A DNA stretch of 64,000 bases from Escherichia coli (GTDB taxonomy: Bacteria > Pseudomonadota > Gammaproteobacteria > Enterobacterales > Enterobacteriaceae): the NCBI RefSeq assembly GCF_011045215.1, contig NZ_CP049201.1. The stretch is one strand, 5' to 3'. Of this stretch, positions 11,248-59,101 are shown piece after piece. Below the pieces are notes generated by a model. The model ran no database searches. It had not been told where the DNA came from and saw nothing but the letters and a program-made list of their open reading frames with translations. The position numbers were made by a program, and so were the translations under genes. Positions within the stretch are counted from its first letter, which is position 1. Every line of letters begins with the position of its first letter.

Positions 11248-11559
11248 AATTCACCAGTACAGCTATAAATCGTAAAGAGAACAGCGGTACATCGTATGTA
11301 AGAACGTACCGCGGTTGGCTGGTGTACTTTCGATAGTGTGAGTATTGAATGATTTCCAGCCGTTACCGATTTTACGTACTAATTCGTGAATAAACCACTC
11401 GTTAGCAGGCAGCCTGATACCTTTCCGTGTCTCCTGAACACTATGGTGTGCATATGGGAAAGCCCATCGTTACAGGTGATATTGACGATCGCTTCCACAT
11501 CATTTAAACGATTTTTGAGTCTCTGAGGTGGAATTCTTCCCTCGACCGATGGATAAGTA

Positions 11560-50000: not shown

Positions 50001-50933
50001 TTAATTCTCCCGATGCAGTAAATCCTGATAGATCCCCGTTAATATGCCATTTGGCGCAAATTGTTTTTTAATCCACTGCGTCACCTGACCCGTAGCAGAA
50101 TGCTGAGTCGCCAGCAACATGCGCGAATCCTGGCGCGGATTATGGATTTGTCGGGTAACCAGCAGGGATTGCGCCATCGCCTCACGGACCATGTAATCCG
50201 GCAAAAAACCAATTCCTTCACCTAAAATCTGGCACTGACATTTGGTGTTGAAATCTGGCACCAGAATCGACTCCTGCCCATGCAGCAACCAGCCCACTTT
50301 TTTATTAATCGTATGCGCGGTGTCCTCCACCATAATATTAGGGTAGAGACGCAGTTGGCTTTCGGCGATGGGTTCCGGCACAAAGGCTAACGGGTGATCC
50401 GGGGCGATAGCAAAAGCCCAGCGAATCGCGCCAATTTCAGTGTAATCAATACCGCCGCCGTCCAGTAGTGTATCGGGTGCGCCGATGGCGATATTGGCCT
50501 GATTATTAATAATCGCATCCCAGACGCCGTTATACACTTCGGTCGTCACGGTAATCTGGCAGGTAGGAAACTGCTTTTTCAGCACCTGTAATAAGCGCGC
50601 GGTGTGTTTGGGCGTATAAAGCAGCTGATTAATACAAATGCGCACACGCGCTTCTATGCCCTGCGAAATAGTATCTATGCTACGTTTGATGGCATAAAAA
50701 TCATTCAGCAGGTCGGTAGCTTTGCGGAAAAAATAACGCCCGGACTCGGTTAACTCAATGCTGCGGGTACTGCGAGTGAACAGCACCACATCCAGCCCCG
50801 TCTCCATACGCTTAATGGTGTAGCTAATGGCGGAAGTGGTTAAACCCAACTCTTCTGCGGCTTTACTGAAGCTGCCAAAACGCGCAGCGGTAGTAAATGC
50901 CAACAGATTCTCTTCGGTAAAAATTGAGTTCAT
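50001..50933 (-). CDS. yahB: LysR-family transcriptional regulator
   Basis: Start at MNSIFTEENLLAFTTAARFGSFSKAAEELGL… (310 aa); the ORF-track start 20 codons earlier was rejected. Confidence 0.8.
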   Translation of the reverse strand: MNSIFTEENLLAFTTAARFGSFSKAAEELGLTTSAISYTIKRMETGLDVVLFTRSTRSIELTESGRYFFRKATDLLNDFYAIKRSIDTISQGIEARVRICINQLLYTPKHTARLLQVLKKQFPTCQITVTTEVYNGVWDAIINNQANIAIGAPDTLLDGGGIDYTEIGAIRWAFAIAPDHPLAFVPEPIAESQLRLYPNIMVEDTAHTINKKVGWLLHGQESILVPDFNTKCQCQILGEGIGFLPDYMVREAMAQSLLVTRQIHNPRQDSRMLLATQHSATGQVTQWIKKQFAPNGILTGIYQDLLHREN

Positions 50934-51024
50934 TAAACCATTCCCGCCATTTTCTACTTTAATTTTCTCCAGGCATAACTGTAGAGGTATCAATTAAAGA
51001 TGGGTAATCATTTTTGAATAACTT

Positions 51025-51522
51025 TTAATACCCGTCGCGTTTAGTCGTCGCTTCGCTTAATTTTTGTCCACCATATTCTGAAATTATCCCCACGCAGTTA
51101 CCCGCCAGAAAACCCAGTAACGTCACCGTCCAGTTCATCCCGCTGGCAAAAAACAGCGTCATGCCGAGAAAGCCACCGGGAATAAATGACAGTAACCAGA
51201 AACGCCCTTGCCAGACCACCACCGCCGAGAAGGGGGCGGTAGTAATTACGCTCGCCCAGAACCCAGAAATCCCACTCACCGAGGCCAGCCAACCGGCAGC
51301 CAGCGCGGCGAAAAACGCCCACACCATCCCGGAATAATTAACCGCCAGACTTCTGATAAACCCCGATTTACCGCCGCCTGCGGCATAAAAACTGCAAAAG
51401 GCGACGAAGCCAATGGTTCCTAATAATTCCCATCCCTGAGAGAGCCCGACATGTGAAGACACTAACTGCCAAAGCCCTGCACAAATACCGACGGTGACAC
51501 CCGTTGCCGTGAGTCCGTTCAT
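51025..51522 (-). CDS. yahC: inner membrane protein YahC
   Basis: 165 aa, highly hydrophobic multi-pass protein. Confidence 0.7.
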   Translation of the reverse strand: MNGLTATGVTVGICAGLWQLVSSHVGLSQGWELLGTIGFVAFCSFYAAGGGKSGFIRSLAVNYSGMVWAFFAALAAGWLASVSGISGFWASVITTAPFSAVVVWQGRFWLLSFIPGGFLGMTLFFASGMNWTVTLLGFLAGNCVGIISEYGGQKLSEATTKRDGY

Positions 51523-51779
51523 CTTGTTCCCCTCTGGTTAGACATGGACGAAAGCTACTCTTACATGTGCAGACTATAGAGAAATAAAACCTGATTGAGT
51601 GAAAGGGTATCGGGTCAAAGAAACAAATATTGCACTACCGCACACTGCGAAAAGATTGTTGAACATCATTCAACAAAAAGGCGAAATACGGCGAATTAAA
51701 TTTAAGCGGGTTCTTTTATCAGATTATCGTTGCTATTCTCAATTCATCGAAAACAGCCACAAAAACCAGGGGAATGTGA

Positions 51780-52385
51780 ATGAGTATAAAAAATCTACCT
51801 GCCGACTATTTATTGGCTGCACAACAGGGTGATATCGATAAAGTAAAAACCTGCCTTGCGCTGGGTGTCGATATTAATACCTGCGATCGTCAGGGGAAAA
51901 CGGCAATTACGCTGGCAAGTTTATATCAGCAATATGCTTGCGTTCAGGCATTAATTGATGCCGGAGCGGATATTAATAAACAAGATCATACCTGTTTAAA
52001 TCCTTTTTTAATTAGCTGTCTGAACGATGATTTAACGCTACTACGAATTATTTTACCGGCTAAACCCGATCTTAATTGCGTAACCCGTTTTGGCGGTGTC
52101 GGCCTGACGCCTGCCTGTGAAAAAGGCCATTTAAGTATTGTAAAAGAGCTTTTGGCGCATACGGAAATTAACGTTAACCAGACCAACCATGTAGGCTGGA
52201 CGCCGCTACTGGAAGCGATTGTGCTTAATGATGGTGGTATTAAACAACAGGCGATTGTGCAGTTATTGCTGGAACACGGTGCCAGCCCGCATCTGACCGA
52301 TAAATATGGCAAAACGCCACTGGAACTGGCGCGGGAACGGGGCTTTGACGAGATTGCGCAGTTACTGATTGCCGCAGGCGCATAA
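51780..52385 (+). CDS. yahD: ankyrin-repeat protein
   Basis: 201 aa with several ankyrin repeats (…GKTAITLASLYQQYACVQALIDAGADIN…, …GWTPLLEAIVLN…, …GKTPLELARERG…). Confidence 0.8.
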   Translation: MSIKNLPADYLLAAQQGDIDKVKTCLALGVDINTCDRQGKTAITLASLYQQYACVQALIDAGADINKQDHTCLNPFLISCLNDDLTLLRIILPAKPDLNCVTRFGGVGLTPACEKGHLSIVKELLAHTEINVNQTNHVGWTPLLEAIVLNDGGIKQQAIVQLLLEHGASPHLTDKYGKTPLELARERGFDEIAQLLIAAGA

Positions 52386-52424
52386 ACCGGGAGGCTTGCA
52401 ATCAACACACCAGAAAAACGGTGT

Positions 52425-53288
52425 ATGTGGGCGCTAACTGCGGATGCGGATTTTCTGGCGCAGCGGGGGCAAGGACAGGTTGAACAGGTCTTTGCCAGAG
52501 CGGTAAATATCGCACTCCCGGCTCGCCAGCAGTTGCTGACGCTGCTTTGTGAAGAGTACGACAATGCGCCAAACAGTTGTCGGTTGGCACTCACTCACTT
52601 TGATGATCTGTTCCGGCATGGTGATAAGGTTCAGTTTGACGATCAAGGTATTACGGTTGGTCAACATCTTCATATAGAGATGAGTCGTTGTCGGCGTTGG
52701 CTGTCCCCAACCTTGCAAATGACCGCTGTGAATTTTCACCTTATCGCCTGGCAACAGTGGCACGACATTATTCATCAGCACCTGGGGGAAAATGAAACCC
52801 TGTTTAATTATCGCGGCGATAATCCGTTTTATCAGGCGTTAAATAAAGAATTACATATTAAACGACGGGCAGTTATTCAGACAGTAAACGATAAGCAAAA
52901 TATCGCCTCAGCGGTCGCCAGTATGATGGGGTTAGGGATTGGCCTTACGCCATCAGCCGACGATTATTTAACAGGTCTGGCGCTTATTTTATTTATTCCC
53001 GGGCATCCGGCGGAAAAATACAAAGAGGAATTTTATCTCGGTCTGCAACGCGGCAGAAATAATACCACATTATTAAGTGCTATAACGCTGGAAGCCGCAT
53101 TACAACAACGTTGCCGGGAAAATATTCATCGTTTTATTCACAACATTATTTATGACATCCCTGGGAACGCAACTCAGGCAATAGAAAAAATTAAACATAT
53201 TGGCTCCAGTTCCGGCTGCGACATGCTGTATGGCATGGCCGATGGTTGTGCGCTGAGCCAAACCTACGGAGGGAATTATGTCAGTTAA
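52425..53288 (+). CDS. yahE: DUF2877-family protein (YlbF/AllH-like)
   Basis: 287 aa; 11-nt overlap with yahF. Confidence 0.7.
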   Translation: MWALTADADFLAQRGQGQVEQVFARAVNIALPARQQLLTLLCEEYDNAPNSCRLALTHFDDLFRHGDKVQFDDQGITVGQHLHIEMSRCRRWLSPTLQMTAVNFHLIAWQQWHDIIHQHLGENETLFNYRGDNPFYQALNKELHIKRRAVIQTVNDKQNIASAVASMMGLGIGLTPSADDYLTGLALILFIPGHPAEKYKEEFYLGLQRGRNNTTLLSAITLEAALQQRCRENIHRFIHNIIYDIPGNATQAIEKIKHIGSSSGCDMLYGMADGCALSQTYGGNYVS

Positions 53289-54825
53289 AATAGTCATTAA
53301 ACCGAATACCTATTTTGATTCTGTCTCGCTGATGTCTATCTCCACGCGTGCAAATAAACTCGACGGCGTCGAGCAGGCATTTGTGGCGATGGCGACCGAA
53401 ATGAATAAAGGCGTGCTGAAGAATTTAGGACTGCTGACGCCGGAGCTGGAACAGGCGAAAAACGGCGACCTGATGATTGTCATCAATGGTAAATCGGGTG
53501 CGGACAACGAGCAGTTGCTGGTGGAGATTGAAGAACTGTTCAACACCAAAGCGCAAAGCGGCTCGCACGAGGCGCGTTACGCCACTATTGCCAGCGCCAA
53601 AAAGCATATCCCGGAAAGTAACCTGGCGGTGATTTCGGTCAACGGTCTGTTTGCCGCTCGCGAAGCGCGTCAGGCGCTGCAAAACGATCTCAACGTGATG
53701 CTGTTTTCCGATAACGTCTCGGTTGAAGATGAACTGGCGCTCAAACAGTTGGCCCATGAAAAAGGGCTGCTGATGATGGGGCCGGACTGCGGCACGGCGA
53801 TTATCAACGGCGCGGCGCTCTGCTTTGGTAACGCCGTGCGTCGCGGTAACATCGGTATTGTTGGCGCATCCGGCACCGGCAGCCAGGAGCTGAGCGTCCG
53901 CATTCATGAATTTGGCGGAGGCGTTTCGCAACTCATCGGCACCGGCGGGCGCGACCTGAGCGAGAAAATCGGCGGCCTGATGATGCTCGACGCCATCGGG
54001 ATGCTGGAAAACGATCCGCAAACTGAAATTATCGCGCTGATTTCAAAACCTCCCGCGCCTGCGGTGGCCCGTAAAGTGCTGGAACGCGCCCGCGCCTGCC
54101 GCAAGCCGGTGGTGGTCTGCTTCCTCGGTCGTGGCGAAACGCCAGTGGACGAGCAGGGGCTACAGTTTGCTCGCGGCAGCAAAGAAGCGGCGCTGAAAGC
54201 GGTGATGCTCTCCGGCGTGAAACAGGAACATCTCGATCTGCATACCCTGAACCAGCCGTTGATTGCGGATGTGCGTGCGCGTCTGCAACCCCAGCAGAAA
54301 TACATTCGTGGCCTGTTCTGCGGCGGTACGCTGTGTGACGAAACCATGTTCGCGGTGATGGAAAAACACGGCGATGTCTACAGCAACATCCAGCCCGATC
54401 CTGAATTCCGCCTGCAAGATATCAACCGCAGCATCAAACACACCTTCCTCGACTTTGGCGATGACGACTTCACCAACGGCAAGCCGCACCCGATGATTGA
54501 CCCCACCAACCGTATCAGCCGCTTGATCGAAGAAGCGCGCGATCCAGAAGTGGCGGTGATCGTGATGGATTTTGTGCTCGGATTTGGATCGCACGAAGAT
54601 CCGGTTGGTTCCACCATCGAGGCGATCAAAGAAGCGAAAGCGATCGCCGCTGCCGAAGGACGCGAGTTGATCATTCTCGCCTATGTGCTGGGTACCGATC
54701 TTGATACGCCATCGTTAGAACAACAAAGCCAGATGCTGCTTGATGCCGGAGTGATTCTGGCGAGCAGCAGCACCAATACCGGATTGCTGGCGCGTGAATT
54801 TATCTGCAAAGGGGAGGAAGCCTGA
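53278..54825 (+). CDS. yahF: FdrA-like CoA-ligase-fold protein (AllF paralog)
   Basis: 515 aa, succinyl-CoA-synthetase-alpha-like fold (…IGIVGASGTGSQEL…). Confidence 0.8.
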   Translation: MSVKIVIKPNTYFDSVSLMSISTRANKLDGVEQAFVAMATEMNKGVLKNLGLLTPELEQAKNGDLMIVINGKSGADNEQLLVEIEELFNTKAQSGSHEARYATIASAKKHIPESNLAVISVNGLFAAREARQALQNDLNVMLFSDNVSVEDELALKQLAHEKGLLMMGPDCGTAIINGAALCFGNAVRRGNIGIVGASGTGSQELSVRIHEFGGGVSQLIGTGGRDLSEKIGGLMMLDAIGMLENDPQTEIIALISKPPAPAVARKVLERARACRKPVVVCFLGRGETPVDEQGLQFARGSKEAALKAVMLSGVKQEHLDLHTLNQPLIADVRARLQPQQKYIRGLFCGGTLCDETMFAVMEKHGDVYSNIQPDPEFRLQDINRSIKHTFLDFGDDDFTNGKPHPMIDPTNRISRLIEEARDPEVAVIVMDFVLGFGSHEDPVGSTIEAIKEAKAIAAAEGRELIILAYVLGTDLDTPSLEQQSQMLLDAGVILASSSTNTGLLAREFICKGEEA

Positions 54826-56243
54826 TGAGCCAGTCACTGTTTAGCCAACCATTGAACGTTATTAACGTCGGCATCGCCATGTTTAGCGATGACCTGAAAA
54901 AGCAGCATGTAGAAGTGACTCAACTCGACTGGACGCCGCCGGGGCAGGGCAATATGCAGGTGGTGCAGGCGCTGGATAACATTGCCGATTCGCCGCTGGC
55001 AGACAAAATCGCCGCCGCTAACCAGCAGGCGCTGGAGCGCATTATCCAGTCGCATCCGGTGCTGATTGGTTTTGATCAGGCGATTAACGTGGTGCCGGGC
55101 ATGACGGCGAAAACCATTCTTCACGCCGGGCCGCCGATCACCTGGGAAAAAATGTGCGGCGCGATGAAAGGCGCGGTCACCGGAGCGCTGGTGTTCGAAG
55201 GGCTGGCGAAAGATCTCGATGAGGCGGCTGACCTGGCGGCTTCCGGGGAGATCACCTTCTCGCCGTGTCACGAGCACGACTGCGTGGGATCGATGGCGGG
55301 TGTGACCTCGGCCTCGATGTTTATGCACATCGTAAAAAACAAAACCTACGGCAACATCGCTTATACCAACATGAGCGAGCAGATGGCGAAGATTTTGCGT
55401 ATGGGCGCTAACGACCAGAGCGTGATTGACCGCCTGAACTGGATGCGTGATGTGCAGGGACCAATACTGCGCGACGCGATGAAAATTATCGGCGAAATCG
55501 ATCTGCGCTTAATGCTGGCGCAGGCGCTGCATATGGGCGATGAGTGCCATAACCGCAATAACGCCGGGACGACGCTGCTGATTCAGGCGCTGACGCCGGG
55601 GATTATCCAGGCGGGCTATTCCGTGGAGCAACAGCGCGAAGTGTTTGAGTTTGTCGCCAGCAGCGACTACTTCTCCGGCCCGACGTGGATGGCGATGTGT
55701 AAAGCGGCGATGGATGCGGCGCACGGCATCGAATACAGCACCGTCGTTACCACCATGGCGCGTAACGGCGTCGAATTCGGCCTGCGAGTCAGCGGATTAC
55801 CGGGGCAATGGTTTACCGGCCCGGCGCAGCAGGTTATTGGCCCGATGTTTGCCGGTTATAAGCCGGAAGATTCAGGGCTGGATATTGGCGACAGCGCCAT
55901 CACTGAAACCTACGGTATTGGCGGGTTTGCCATGGCGACCGCGCCTGCAATCGTCGCGCTGGTCGGCGGTACGGTGGAAGAGGCTATCGATTTCTCCCGT
56001 CAGATGCGCGAAATCACTCTCGGTGAAAACCCCAACGTCACCATTCCGCTGCTCGGTTTTATGGGCGTGCCGTCGGCAATCGACATCACCCGCGTGGGTA
56101 GCAGCGGCATTCTGCCGGTGATCAACACCGCCATCGCCCATAAAGATGCGGGCGTCGGCATGATTGGCGCGGGCATTGTGCATCCACCTTTTGCCTGCTT
56201 CGAGAAAGCCATTCTTGGCTGGTGCGAACGTTACGGCGTCTGA
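54825..56243 (+). CDS. yahG: DUF1116-family protein (YlbE/AllG-like)
   Basis: 472 aa; start overlaps the yahF stop (TGATG). Confidence 0.8.
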   Translation: MSQSLFSQPLNVINVGIAMFSDDLKKQHVEVTQLDWTPPGQGNMQVVQALDNIADSPLADKIAAANQQALERIIQSHPVLIGFDQAINVVPGMTAKTILHAGPPITWEKMCGAMKGAVTGALVFEGLAKDLDEAADLAASGEITFSPCHEHDCVGSMAGVTSASMFMHIVKNKTYGNIAYTNMSEQMAKILRMGANDQSVIDRLNWMRDVQGPILRDAMKIIGEIDLRLMLAQALHMGDECHNRNNAGTTLLIQALTPGIIQAGYSVEQQREVFEFVASSDYFSGPTWMAMCKAAMDAAHGIEYSTVVTTMARNGVEFGLRVSGLPGQWFTGPAQQVIGPMFAGYKPEDSGLDIGDSAITETYGIGGFAMATAPAIVALVGGTVEEAIDFSRQMREITLGENPNVTIPLLGFMGVPSAIDITRVGSSGILPVINTAIAHKDAGVGMIGAGIVHPPFACFEKAILGWCERYGV

Positions 56244-56255
56244 CCTACATGTTCA

Positions 56256-56709
56256 TGCCGGATGCGGCGTGAACGCCTTATCCGGCCTACAAGTGGCGCA
56301 AGAATTTGTAGGCCTGATAAGCGTAGCGCATCAGGCATTTGTCACCATTGCCTGATGCGGCGTGAACGCCTTATCCGGCCTACGAGTGGCGCGAGAATTT
56401 GTAGGCCTGATAAGCGTAGCGCATCAGGCATTTGTCACCATTGCCGGATGCGGCGTGAACGCCTTATCCGGCCTACGAGTGGCACGAGAATTTGTAGGCC
56501 TGATAAGCGTAGCGCATCAGGCATTTGTCACCATTGCCGGATGCGGCGTGAACGCCTTATCCGGCCTACGAGTGGCACGAGAATTTGTAGGCCTGATAAG
56601 CGTAGCGCATCAGGCATTTGTCACCATTGCCGGATGCGGCGTGAACGCCTTATCCGGCCTACGAGTGGCACGAGAATTTGTAGGCCTGATAAGCGTAGCG
56701 CATCAGGCA
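56256..56709. repeat. tandem REP (BIME-type) array, about 5 units of about 93 bp
   Basis: Repeating unit TGCCGGATGCGGCGTGAACGCCTTATCCGGCCTAC-spacer-TAGGCCTGATAAGCGTAGCGCATCAGGCA-TTTGTCACCAT, with unit starts at about 56256, 56349, 56442, 56536 and 56628; fills the yahG-yahI gap. Confidence 0.85.
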
Positions 56710-56758
56710 ATTTGGCGTTGGTCACAACCCCATCATCCTCTGTAGCGGACATAACAAA

Positions 56759-57709
56759 ATGAAAGAGCTTGTGGTCGTTGCCATTGGTGGCAACAGCATT
56801 ATCAAAGATAACGCCAGCCAGTCGATTGAGCATCAGGCGGAGGCGGTGAAAGCCGTCGCCGATACGGTGCTGGAAATGCTGGCTTCCGATTACGACATTG
56901 TGCTGACCCACGGTAACGGGCCGCAGGTCGGGCTGGATTTACGCCGTGCGGAGATTGCCCACGAGCGCGAAGGGCTGCCCTTAACGCCGCTGGCGAACTG
57001 TGTGGCAGATACGCAGGGCGGCATCGGCTATCTGATCCAACAGGCGCTGAATAACCGGCTGGCGCGTCACGGCGAGAAGAAAGCCGTCACCGTGGTGACT
57101 CAGGTGGAAGTGGATAAAAACGATCCAGGTTTTGCCCATCCCACCAAGCCCATTGGTGCATTCTTCAGTGAAAGCCAGCGTGACGAATTACAAAAGGCAA
57201 ACCCTGACTGGCGTTTTGTTGAAGATGCCGGACGGGGCTATCGCCGCGTGGTCGCCTCGCCGGAACCGAAACGTATTGTCGAAGCACCCGCCATTAAGGC
57301 GCTGATCCAACAAGGCTTTGTGGTGATTGGCGCGGGCGGCGGCGGAATTCCTGTGGTGCGTACTGACGCGGGAGATTACCAAAGCGTGGACGCGGTTATC
57401 GACAAAGATCTCTCTACCGCGCTACTGGCTCGCGAAATTCACGCCGACATTCTGGTGATCACCACTGGCGTGGAAAAAGTGTGTATTCATTTTGGTAAAC
57501 CGCAGCAACAGGCGCTCGATCGGGTGGATATTGCCACCATGACCCGCTATATGCAGGAAGGGCATTTCCCGCCCGGCAGCATGTTGCCAAAAATCATCGC
57601 CAGCCTGACGTTCCTGGAACAGGGCGGCAAAGAAGTGATTATCACCACGCCGGAATGCCTGCCTGCGGCGCTGCGCGGTGAAACGGGCACCCATATTATT
57701 AAAACGTAA
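56759..57709 (+). CDS. yahI: carbamate kinase-like protein
   Basis: 316 aa amino-acid-kinase fold (MKELVVVAIGGNSI…THGNGPQVG…). Confidence 0.85.
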   Translation: MKELVVVAIGGNSIIKDNASQSIEHQAEAVKAVADTVLEMLASDYDIVLTHGNGPQVGLDLRRAEIAHEREGLPLTPLANCVADTQGGIGYLIQQALNNRLARHGEKKAVTVVTQVEVDKNDPGFAHPTKPIGAFFSESQRDELQKANPDWRFVEDAGRGYRRVVASPEPKRIVEAPAIKALIQQGFVVIGAGGGGIPVVRTDAGDYQSVDAVIDKDLSTALLAREIHADILVITTGVEKVCIHFGKPQQQALDRVDIATMTRYMQEGHFPPGSMLPKIIASLTFLEQGGKEVIITTPECLPAALRGETGTHIIKT

Positions 57710-57718
57710 GGACGTAAG

Positions 57719-59101
57719 ATGAAAGAAAGCAATAGCCGCCGTGAATTTCTGAGCCAGAGCGGTAAGATGGTCACCGCCGCCGCGCTGTTTGGTACCTCTG
57801 TGCCGCTCGCCCATGCGGCGGTAGCTGGCACCCTAAACTGCGAAGCGAACAACACCATGAAAATCACTGACCCGCATTACTATCTCGACAACGTGCTGCT
57901 GGAAACTGGATTTGACTACGAAAATGGCGTGGCGGTGCAGACCCGCACGGCGCGCCAGACCGTGGAGATTCAGGACGGCAAAATTGTCGCGCTGCGCGAG
58001 AACAAGCAGCATCCGGACGCCACGCTGCCGCACTATGACGCTGGCGATAAGCTGATGCTGCCCACCACCCGCGACATGCATATTCATCTCGACAAAACCT
58101 TCTACGGCGGGCCGTGGCGCTCGCTCAATCGTCCGGCAGGCACCACTATCCAGGACATGATCAAACTCGAGCAGAAAATGCTGCCGGAGTTACAACCGTA
58201 TACGCAGGAGCGGGCGGAAAAACTGATCGATCTATTGCAGTCGAAAGGCACCACCATTGCCCGCAGCCACTGCAATATCGAACCGGTTTCCGGTCTGAAA
58301 AATCTGCAAAATTTGCAGGCGGTGCTGGCGCGACGTCAGGCGGGCTTCGAGTGTGAAATCGTCGCCTTCCCGCAGCACGGTTTGCTGCTGTCGAAATCGG
58401 AACCCTTAATGCGCGAAGCGATGCAGGCGGGTGCGCATTACGTCGGCGGGCTGGACCCGACCAGTGTCGATGGCGCGATGGAAAAATCCCTCGACACCAT
58501 GTTCCAGATTGCGCTGGACTACGACAAAGGCGTCGATATTCACCTGCACGAAACCACTCCGTCGGGCGTGGCAGCCATCAATTATATGGTTGAAACGGTA
58601 GAGAAAACGCCTCAACTGAAAGGTAAGCTGACCATCAGCCACGCCTTTGCGCTGGCTACGCTCAACGAGCAACAGGTAGATGAACTGGCGCATCGCATGG
58701 CGGCGCAGCAAATTTCTATCGCCTCGACGGTGCCGATTGGCACGCTGCATATGCCGCTCAAACAGTTGCACGACAAAGGCGTAAAAGTGATGACTGGCAC
58801 TGACAGCGTTATCGACCACTGGTCGCCTTATGGTCTGGGCGACATGCTGGAAAAAGCCAATCTCTACGCGCAGCTCTATATTCGTCCTAACGAACAGAAC
58901 CTCTCCCGTTCGCTGTTTTTAGCCACTGGCGATGTATTGCCGCTGAATGAAAAAGGCGAGCGTGTATGGCCAAAAGCGCAGGATGACGCCAGCTTTGTGC
59001 TGGTGGACGCCTCCTGTTCCGCCGAGGCGGTGGCGCGTATCTCGCCGAGAACCGCAACGTTCCATAAAGGGCAACTGGTGTGGGGGAGTGTGGCAGGTTG
59101 A
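57719..59101 (+). CDS. yahJ: Tat-exported amidohydrolase-superfamily deaminase-like protein
   Basis: 460 aa; twin-arginine motif SRREFLSQSGKMVTAAALFGTSVPLAHA; metal-dependent hydrolase motifs (HIHLDK…, HLHE…). Confidence 0.8.
   Translation: MKESNSRREFLSQSGKMVTAAALFGTSVPLAHAAVAGTLNCEANNTMKITDPHYYLDNVLLETGFDYENGVAVQTRTARQTVEIQDGKIVALRENKQHPDATLPHYDAGDKLMLPTTRDMHIHLDKTFYGGPWRSLNRPAGTTIQDMIKLEQKMLPELQPYTQERAEKLIDLLQSKGTTIARSHCNIEPVSGLKNLQNLQAVLARRQAGFECEIVAFPQHGLLLSKSEPLMREAMQAGAHYVGGLDPTSVDGAMEKSLDTMFQIALDYDKGVDIHLHETTPSGVAAINYMVETVEKTPQLKGKLTISHAFALATLNEQQVDELAHRMAAQQISIASTVPIGTLHMPLKQLHDKGVKVMTGTDSVIDHWSPYGLGDMLEKANLYAQLYIRPNEQNLSRSLFLATGDVLPLNEKGERVWPKAQDDASFVLVDASCSAEAVARISPRTATFHKGQLVWGSVAG

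Follow-up and report, generated by a model that had tools for sequence, protein, structure and literature searches.

The yah operon of Escherichia coli as a candidate ATP-yielding ureide catabolic module paralogous to the allantoin-locus oxamic transcarbamylase

Introduction

The yah operon (yahD, yahE, yahF, yahG, yahI and yahJ, with the regulator gene yahB) lies within a 64,000-nucleotide (nt) segment of an Escherichia coli chromosome, hereafter the window, to which coordinates refer unless another locus is named. On balance, we favour a reading in which the operon encodes a catabolic module paralogous to the allS and allFGHK genes of the allantoin locus, gaining ATP by substrate-level phosphorylation from another ureide. 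Purine-derived ureides are the most likely substrate class, because the module and its relatives are accompanied by nucleobase-type transporters, guanine- or cytosine-deaminase-like partners and regulators of purine type. Paralogy to the all set is already visible in current annotation; the literature searched, however, gives no account of the ankyrin-repeat partner, of the deaminase predicted to be periplasmic, of the lost transporter or of YahE being dispensable. If correct, this reading adds a new fermentation of nitrogen compounds, yielding ATP, to the repertoire of gut and soil bacteria, and broadens the class of non-canonical transcarbamylases. It would also begin to fill a long-standing gap in the y-ome, to which yahI and its six-gene neighbourhood belong (PMC11551758): K-12 yahC to yahJ are still uncharacterised in the RefSeq record (copy of 30 September 2026).

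Homology to the allantoin-locus enzyme

AllFGH has been shown experimentally to be an oxamic transcarbamylase, co-operonic with the carbamate kinase AllK (Kim & Kim 2024, PMC11326118), and AllS activates the allFGHK operon (PMC12535856); neither paper mentions the yah paralogues. Direct BLASTP comparison of the K-12 all locus proteins with the Yah proteins of the window paired YahF (53278..54825, + strand; 515 amino acids (aa), FdrA/AllF-like, with a succinyl-CoA-synthetase-alpha-like fold) with AllF at 39% identity (8e-103), YahG (54825..56243, +; 472 aa, DUF1116/AllG-like) with AllG at 45% (6e-120), YahE (52425..53288, +; 287 aa, DUF2877/AllH-like) with AllH at 25% (4e-10), YahI (56759..57709, +; 316 aa, carbamate kinase) with AllK at 38% (7e-58) and the LysR-type regulator YahB (50001..50993, − strand) with AllS at 39% (2e-72). 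An earlier note on this DNA had proposed that yahE, yahF, yahG and yahI mirror allFGH and allK, and had named beforehand a lack of homology to AllF, AllG and AllH as grounds for abandoning the idea: no such lack was observed (39, 45 and 25% identity), and the mirroring extends to five homologous gene pairs, YahB–AllS included, at 25–45% identity.

Profile searches assigned YahE to Pfam AllH/DUF2877 (3.5e-28), YahG to AllG/DUF1116 (6.9e-89) and YahF to CoA_binding and Ligase_CoA. YahF also passed the cutoff of the NCBIfam FdrA model NF004760 (492.6 bits against 433) and matched the FdrA structure 3dmy in the Protein Data Bank (PDB; 4.4e-83), where YahG matched 3clq (1.4e-195). YahI scored 650.4 bits against NCBIfam PRK12352 (cutoff 266) and fell just below the cutoff of the arcC equivalog TIGR00746 (347.9 against 358.25); it matched carbamate kinase structures at 1e-83 to 1e-59 (among them 1e19, 7.8e-83, and 1b7b, 5.3e-73) and carries the motifs HGNGPQVG, KPIG, GGGGIPV and VIDKDL. 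YahI belongs to the carbamate kinase family, with the corresponding activity predicted, and is one of three such paralogues in E. coli, the other two, allK and yqeA, both being tied to purine breakdown.

The yah genes are not orthologous to allFGH: the two sets occupy separate loci in one genome, and no all genes lie near yah in the window. When one genome per species was scanned, relatives turned up in 475 species; context was mapped by placing reference proteins onto the top 80 loci, which belong to Enterobacterales or Aeromonas without exception. Among E. coli, Brevibacillus, Paenibacillus and Janthinobacterium, YahG identity is 76–79%, and it reaches 88% against the Aeromonas protein; all YahG orthologues fall into one 50%-identity cluster (76% representative), with the next relatives at 50% identity or less. 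By these comparisons the yah set is a separate, tightly conserved orthogroup and not a copy of allFGHK, and the distance between 39, 45 and 25% identity to AllF, AllG and AllH and at least 76% among Yah orthologues suggests that Yah is constrained to a distinct specificity.

That distance across phyla is one reason why we think it unlikely that Yah is an AllFGH isozyme, simply another oxamic transcarbamylase specific for oxalurate. Under a regulator of its own, such an isozyme would handle oxalurate or parabanic acid from sources other than the allantoin pathway, such as oxidation of urate or guanine. It would fit an AllS-like regulator, and a Yah-type G subunit is present in the PDB as 3clq (~72% identity over residues 58–463), which we take to come from Enterococcus faecalis. 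Titles in two reference lists, as far as titles go, also mention parabanic acid as inducer of an oxamate transcarbamylase and, for Streptococcus faecalis, an oxalurate pathway that includes a third carbamate kinase. Oxalurate is the substrate of the closest characterised relatives, and the restoration of oxamate in an allFGH deletion strain to 7% by allFG alone and to 16% by allGH alone (PMC11326118) could reflect cross-complementation by Yah subunits. However, the triple allFGH deletion yields zero oxamate (PMC11326118) although K-12 derivatives normally carry yah, a result that missing expression or induction would explain equally well, and the deaminase and nucleobase-type transporters described below would be purposeless in a pure oxalurate route. 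The contig with a protein identical to 3clq (locus L091, 9751–11155) says little in favour of the isozyme: its DUF1116 gene is frameshifted into a 77-aa N-terminal open reading frame (ORF) and a 384-aa ORF, its AllH is short and it has no carbamate kinase. The crystallised 3clq chain itself, of 421 aa, begins beyond the N-terminal stretch common to YahG and the AllF tail.

Conservation of the module

Across the 80 loci the common architecture is yahB on the reverse strand, then yahD, yahE, yahF, yahG, a transporter gene, yahI and yahJ. The same context recurs in Firmicutes and Betaproteobacteria, giving a cross-phylum pattern of a LysR or PucR regulator beside genes for an ankyrin protein, DUF2877, FdrA-like and DUF1116 subunits, a transporter, a carbamate kinase and a deaminase. 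YahB is present in 75/75 informative loci, including those of Aeromonas, and it flanks the module in Janthinobacterium as well; YahI and YahJ are each present in 66/66. Membership of the module can thereby be defined: D, E, F, G, the transporter, I, J and B are in, whilst yahK and 'yahH' are out. The earlier note had counted yahD, yahJ and yahB as partners, which the counts for YahB (75/75) and YahJ (66/66) and the position of YahD orthologues directly 5′ of the E/F/G genes bear out; it had also included yahK, which is not kept beside the module and lies five genes from yahJ in E. coli PapM-32-1.

YahD (51780..52385, +; 201 aa) consists of Pfam Ank_2/Ank_4 ankyrin repeats. In Brevibacillus, Janthinobacterium and Aeromonas an orthologue immediately precedes the E/F/G genes, and an Ank-TPR fusion is the counterpart in Psychrobacillus, Trichococcus, Jeotgalibaca and Peribacillus. 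YahD is a conserved fourth partner of the Yah-type enzyme, for which allFGHK has no counterpart.

All six genes are under strong purifying selection, with ratios of nonsynonymous to synonymous substitution rates (dN/dS) of 0.014–0.28 in comparisons of E. coli, E. albertii, Kluyvera, Raoultella and Citrobacter. YahG is the most conserved component (0.03–0.04; YahD, 0.08–0.14) and YahE the fastest-evolving (0.16–0.28), with an identity outside Escherichia of 35–64%, the lowest among the Yah proteins. YahE is absent altogether from 25/78 loci (Enterobacter, Leclercia, Lelliottia, Silvania, A. cavernicola and others), where yahD is followed by yahF after ~140 nt, and also from Jeotgalibaca, an absence in keeping with published results on AllFGH, in which the phenotype of deleting allH is leaky and allFG alone gives 7% activity (PMC11326118).

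Evidence for a subunit complex

The six frames of the operon are intact, exactly at the positions given for them earlier. Overlaps of 11 nt between yahE and yahF and of 1 nt (ATGA) between yahF and yahG are real, and the stoichiometric complex that the earlier note had read from them gains support from F–G fusions, an E–F fusion and a segment swap. Firstly, ~19 long representatives of the DUF1116 family are fusions of an FdrA-like N-terminal half to a DUF1116 C-terminal half (one of them, P0132, was checked individually). Secondly, yahE and yahF form one 799-codon frame in Zophobihabitans entericus. Thirdly, residues 12–53 of YahG are homologous to the last ~45 residues of AllF, a segment of ~45–55 aa that is thus N-terminal on YahG and C-terminal on AllF. 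Together, the fusions, the overlaps and the segment exchanged between AllF and YahG support a predicted F–G core complex to which YahE is attached.

Distant F–G pairs occur in other contexts, which hints that the core has been reused for several acylurea-type substrates. One pair (L089, 6614–10428; 48% identity) lies directly behind a gene of the cyanuric-acid-hydrolase/barbiturase family, which there replaces AllH; products of that family are N-acylureas, like oxalurate. Another (L090, 2879–10136) is accompanied by a ferredoxin-like protein, an M20 peptidase, an amidohydrolase and an FAA hydrolase.

The transporter and its loss from Escherichia

In most related loci a 517-aa polytopic membrane protein, here called T517, is encoded between yahG and yahI (for example at 11540–13093 in L006, 11537–13087 in L026, 15436–16968 in L088 and 5743–7287 in L093). 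It matches no Pfam or NCBIfam family, and public labels of the family read 'xanthine permease' or 'AGZA family'. Its AlphaFold2 model, of moderate quality (predicted local distance difference test, pLDDT, 63), matches only transporters built on a 7+7 inverted repeat (SVCT1, UraA, AZG2, BicA and SLC26; E 1.7e-7 to 1e-4), and the predicted fold is UraA/AzgA/SLC26-like at superfamily level only. In alignment the T517 family retains 55–90% identity across phyla, and it seems mainly confined to Yah-type clusters. The Brevibacillus, Paenibacillus and Psychrobacillus loci have an NCS1 transporter nearest to allantoin permease, beside a CDA-fold enzyme.

T517 is exclusive of YahC, a small protein labelled DUF1097 domain-containing in RefSeq, whose gene (51025..51522, −) lies 31 nt upstream of yahB and is divergent from yahD. 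T517 without yahC is found in 55 loci and yahC without T517 in 15, with both or neither in none; the six groups without T517, which alone have yahC, are Escherichia, Pseudocitrobacter, Kluyvera, Raoultella, Citrobacter amalonaticus and Klebsiella spallanzanii. The exclusion may reflect a single evolutionary event, and YahC is possibly an alternative uptake carrier in Escherichia.

Escherichia has lost T517, and its slot is occupied by a tandem array of repetitive extragenic palindromes (REP), or bacterial interspersed mosaic elements (BIME), at 56256..56714 (4.9 x 93 base pairs (bp), 98% matches in Tandem Repeats Finder), whose copies have 121705 match places across E. coli genomes. The 166-aa ORF 'yahH' (56262–56762) is a phantom product of this array, described as 'filled with REP23 sites' in the 2024 y-ome survey (PMC11551758). 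Intergenic spacing is 39 nt between yahD and yahE, 515 nt between yahG and yahI, and 9 nt between yahI and yahJ.

One could read the Escherichia operon as a functionless evolutionary remnant whose transporter was replaced by REP elements that split the operon. A tblastn search of the window found no remnant of T517 or of an NCS1 gene, yahG and yahI are parted by the 515-bp array, and no phenotype or expression condition is reported in the literature searched, all of which would suit a relic. We nevertheless hold this to be improbable: six intact frames with dN/dS of 0.014–0.28 contradict decay, and the transporter-less form is common to six genera, always with yahC. At least 80% of the region is carried by 4977/5426 (92%) complete E. 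coli genomes; the window is 97–98% identical in DNA to K-12 MG1655 over it, and YahD, YahE, YahF, YahG, YahI and YahJ are 98.6–99.8% identical to their K-12 counterparts.

The deaminase step

YahJ (57719..59101, +; 460 aa) is an amidohydrolase with a twin-arginine signal, visible as SRREFL in its N-terminus MKESNSRREFLSQSGKMVTAAALFGTSVPLAHA; the HxH...D metal-site motifs can also be seen in the sequence. It scored 717 bits (cutoff 447) against the generic NCBIfam 'amidohydrolase' model PRK06846, the only one passed; the cytosine deaminase models gave 70–102 bits against cutoffs of 403–483, which places YahJ outside those families. The nearest solved relatives are 6nbo (AtzC-like, 1.8e-43), AtzC (~1e-29) and cytosine deaminases (1e-19 to 1e-15; CodA, ~1e-17). 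RRxF[LI] followed by AxA, a signal for twin-arginine translocation (Tat), occurs in 75/75 YahJ orthologues, and because it is kept throughout, YahJ in Enterobacterales is predicted to work in the periplasm. The signal peptide is reportedly Tat-specific.

In Brevibacillus, Paenibacillus and Psychrobacillus the deaminase position is held by a 150-aa CDA-fold enzyme, closest to guanine deaminase of B. subtilis (1.5e-31), whilst Trichococcus, an Oceanobacillus-like contig and Peribacillus have two to three signal-less YahJ paralogues per locus (36–44% identity) beside E/F/G. The deaminase step appears to be retained by non-homologous enzymes across lineages, and may only widen the substrate range. 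Genes of the RidA family (Ribonuc_L-PSP) occur near two Firmicute Yah-type clusters (L092, 12971–14239; L003, 2297–2677), and in Trichococcus a triple-RidA fusion lies directly 3′ of the cluster; the proximity of these genes may point to an enamine or imine as the compound left after loss of the carbamoyl group.

Regulation

The best NCBIfam models for YahB are AllS (2.4e-79) and PunR (2.3e-70), both below their cutoffs; Proteobacteria have such AllS/PunR-like LysR proteins at their loci, and Firmicutes PucR-type regulators. As called, the yahB ORF has a TTG start, and because RefSeq orthologues are of 310 aa, the true start is probably ~60 nt further in. The earlier note had placed an adjacent LysR gene in the module: yahB holds as a conserved partner, but it is not immediately adjacent to yahD, since yahC intervenes.

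Three conserved boxes (51656..51741, +) precede yahD: a palindrome, TTGTTGAA-N5-TTCAACAA, at 51656–51676; GCGAATTAAATTTAAGCGG at 51691–51709, the E. coli form of GATGAAT..TTTAAGCGG; and GTTGCTATTCTCA at 51729–51741, of which the conserved form is TTGCTATTCT. They recur with fixed spacing (34 and 40 nt) in Enterobacterales and Aeromonas between divergent flanks, a layout typical of a LysR recognition site, activation site and −10 region. We infer from this layout that the region is the operator of YahB together with the promoter, that YahB would bind there, and that it is a probable activator of the operon. Consensus scans for sigma-70 promoters and terminators gave fewer matches than shuffled sequence, and no sigma-54 −24/−12 element was seen 5′ of yahD on inspection by eye. 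Because no similar palindrome or dyad was found in the allD–allF control region, the yah and all regulons are probably separate.

Regulators of purine-catabolism type, uptake-type transporters and hydrolytic deaminases are the partners of a degradative pathway, and they speak against a module that is not catabolic at all, in which carbamoyl phosphate made by YahI would serve to carbamoylate an acceptor in biosynthesis or detoxification, or in which YahF would be an acyl-CoA synthetase. It is true that AllFGH was assayed for synthesis, starting from carbamoyl phosphate and oxamate (PMC11326118), that RefSeq labels YahF 'putative acyl-CoA synthetase', and that some carbamate-kinase-like enzymes are anabolic (PMC6022934). 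However, biosynthetic genes do not accompany the module and AllFGH, the closest characterised system, is catabolic in vivo, and a non-catabolic role strikes us as very unlikely.

Proposed pathway

In the catabolic reading that we favour, YahJ, exported by Tat, would act in the periplasm, where it would hydrolytically deaminate an N-heterocycle with an amino or imino substituent, similar to guanine, cytosine or ammelide. The resulting oxo or ureido compound would enter the cell through T517, with its UraA/AzgA-type fold, in most genera, and through another carrier, possibly YahC, in Escherichia. A YahF–YahG core, assisted by YahE and YahD in an accessory or scaffolding role, would then phosphorolyse the terminal carbamoyl group of an N-acylurea-type compound to carbamoyl phosphate and an amide, a chemistry that has been shown for AllFGH acting on oxalurate. 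From carbamoyl phosphate and ADP, YahI would form ATP, NH3 and CO2, and YahB would turn on transcription from the conserved operator 5′ of yahD. Candidate substrates are oxalurate or parabanate outside the allantoin route, a ureido-imidazole, and biuret- or ureidomalonate-like compounds.

Several observations weigh against this scheme. Firstly, the module encodes no ring-opening enzyme, and the heterocycle would have to open spontaneously, through an unlinked enzyme or through the complex itself. Secondly, the parts list varies: the E. coli locus has no transporter, the core occurs without a deaminase in Janthinobacterium, Aeromonas allosaccharophila and an E. coli plasmid copy, and loci without YahE depart in subunit make-up from the three-gene requirement reported for AllFGH. 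Thirdly, no enzymatic, genetic or expression study of yah gene function was found in the literature searched.

A bolder version, which we offer tentatively and think doubtful as a whole, makes Yah a four-component, ankyrin-containing 'N-acylurea phosphorylase' pathway for an unrecognised nutrient, a purine-oxidation or triazine-type ureide reached via the periplasmic deaminase. Were it true, enterobacteria and many soil Firmicutes would have a new fermentative ATP source with its own nucleobase-type transporter family, and a general enzyme class would emerge for energy-conserving acylurea breakdown, in which an F–G core is combined with variable partners such as AllH, ankyrin proteins and AtzD-like ring openers. 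E. coli K-12 is a poor model for such work because its transporter is missing; Citrobacter, Enterobacter or the copy on an IncF plasmid would serve better.

Locus history and further modules

G+C content changes at the yahE/yahF junction (53278), from 45–47% in yahD and yahE to 56–58% in yahF, yahG, yahI and yahJ (window, 49.7%). In Pseudocitrobacter (L009 and L011) YahF, YahG, YahI and YahJ are 96–99% identical to the window proteins, and YahC 72%, YahD 71% and YahE 55–58%. This mosaic of composition and identity suggests an old recombination or transfer with its breakpoint at the yahE/yahF boundary. In the closest complete genome, that of E. coli PapM-32-1 (L001, 13621–18718), an ASCH-domain gene and an autoinducer-2-type ABC transporter lie between yahJ and yahK; they are absent from the window.

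A second, IS-flanked Yah-type module is found in 142/5426 complete E. coli genomes, with a LysR gene followed by genes for ankyrin, DUF2877, FdrA and DUF1116 proteins, T517 and a carbamate kinase, and without YahJ. It is mostly plasmid-borne (106 places), as on the IncF plasmid pMTY1886_IncF (L097, 4107–12540), and is also found on the chromosome of strain 104 (L098); its nearest relatives are in the Citrobacter freundii complex (87–96%), not in chromosomal yah. A further yahE/yahF/yahG-like set is listed for the tkt1 pathogenicity island of avian and extraintestinal pathogenic (ExPEC) strains, on the APEC O1 chromosome (PMC3349570); a permease, a carbamate kinase and a hydrolase of the isochorismatase family accompany it. 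The E. coli pan-genome therefore contains four or more modules of this enzyme type.

Comparison with known systems

The nearest known system is AllFGH–AllK–AllS, which has in common with Yah its three subunit types (FdrA-like, DUF1116 and DUF2877), a carbamate kinase encoded in the same operon and a LysR regulator related by paralogy, and for which the chemistry proposed here, phosphorolysis of an N-acylurea to carbamoyl phosphate, would be the same. In the window the carbamate kinase gene yahI lies on the same strand downstream of yahG, with the REP array intervening. The two differ in gene order (E-F-G in Yah, F-G-H in All), in the placement of the ~45-aa tail of AllF, which sits on YahG in the Yah system, and in operator sequence. 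Features that set Yah apart from AllFGH are a conserved ankyrin protein, an amidohydrolase with a Tat signal and, except in Escherichia, a transporter of its own. Full activity of AllFGH reportedly requires AllH, whereas many Yah loci do without YahE.

AtzC and CodA belong to the same amidohydrolase group as YahJ and share its metal motifs, but YahJ lies far below the cytosine deaminase cutoff (102 bits against 438) and carries a Tat signal in 75/75 orthologues.

The arginine and agmatine deiminase pathways consist of a deiminase, a catabolic transcarbamylase, a carbamate kinase and a transporter. Their logic is that proposed for Yah: hydrolysis of a C=NH or C–NH2 group gives a ureido compound, from which carbamoyl phosphate and then, through carbamate kinase, ATP are formed, a single operon encoding every step and a transporter. 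The folds, however, are unrelated: no operon protein matches a pentein deiminase or an OTC-fold transcarbamylase, which sets the module outside the deiminase pathways, its deaminases being amidohydrolase or CDA enzymes (periplasmic, by prediction, in Enterobacterales) and its transcarbamylase of FdrA/DUF1116/DUF2877 type. The third carbamate-kinase-linked cluster of E. coli, ygeW–yqeA, which acts in the metabolism of purine-derived nitrogen (PMC12623156), resembles Yah in pairing a carbamate kinase paralogue with a catabolic transcarbamylase and differs from it in the transcarbamylase itself: YgeW has the OTC fold, and Yah the FdrA/DUF1116/DUF2877 architecture that it shares with AllFGH.

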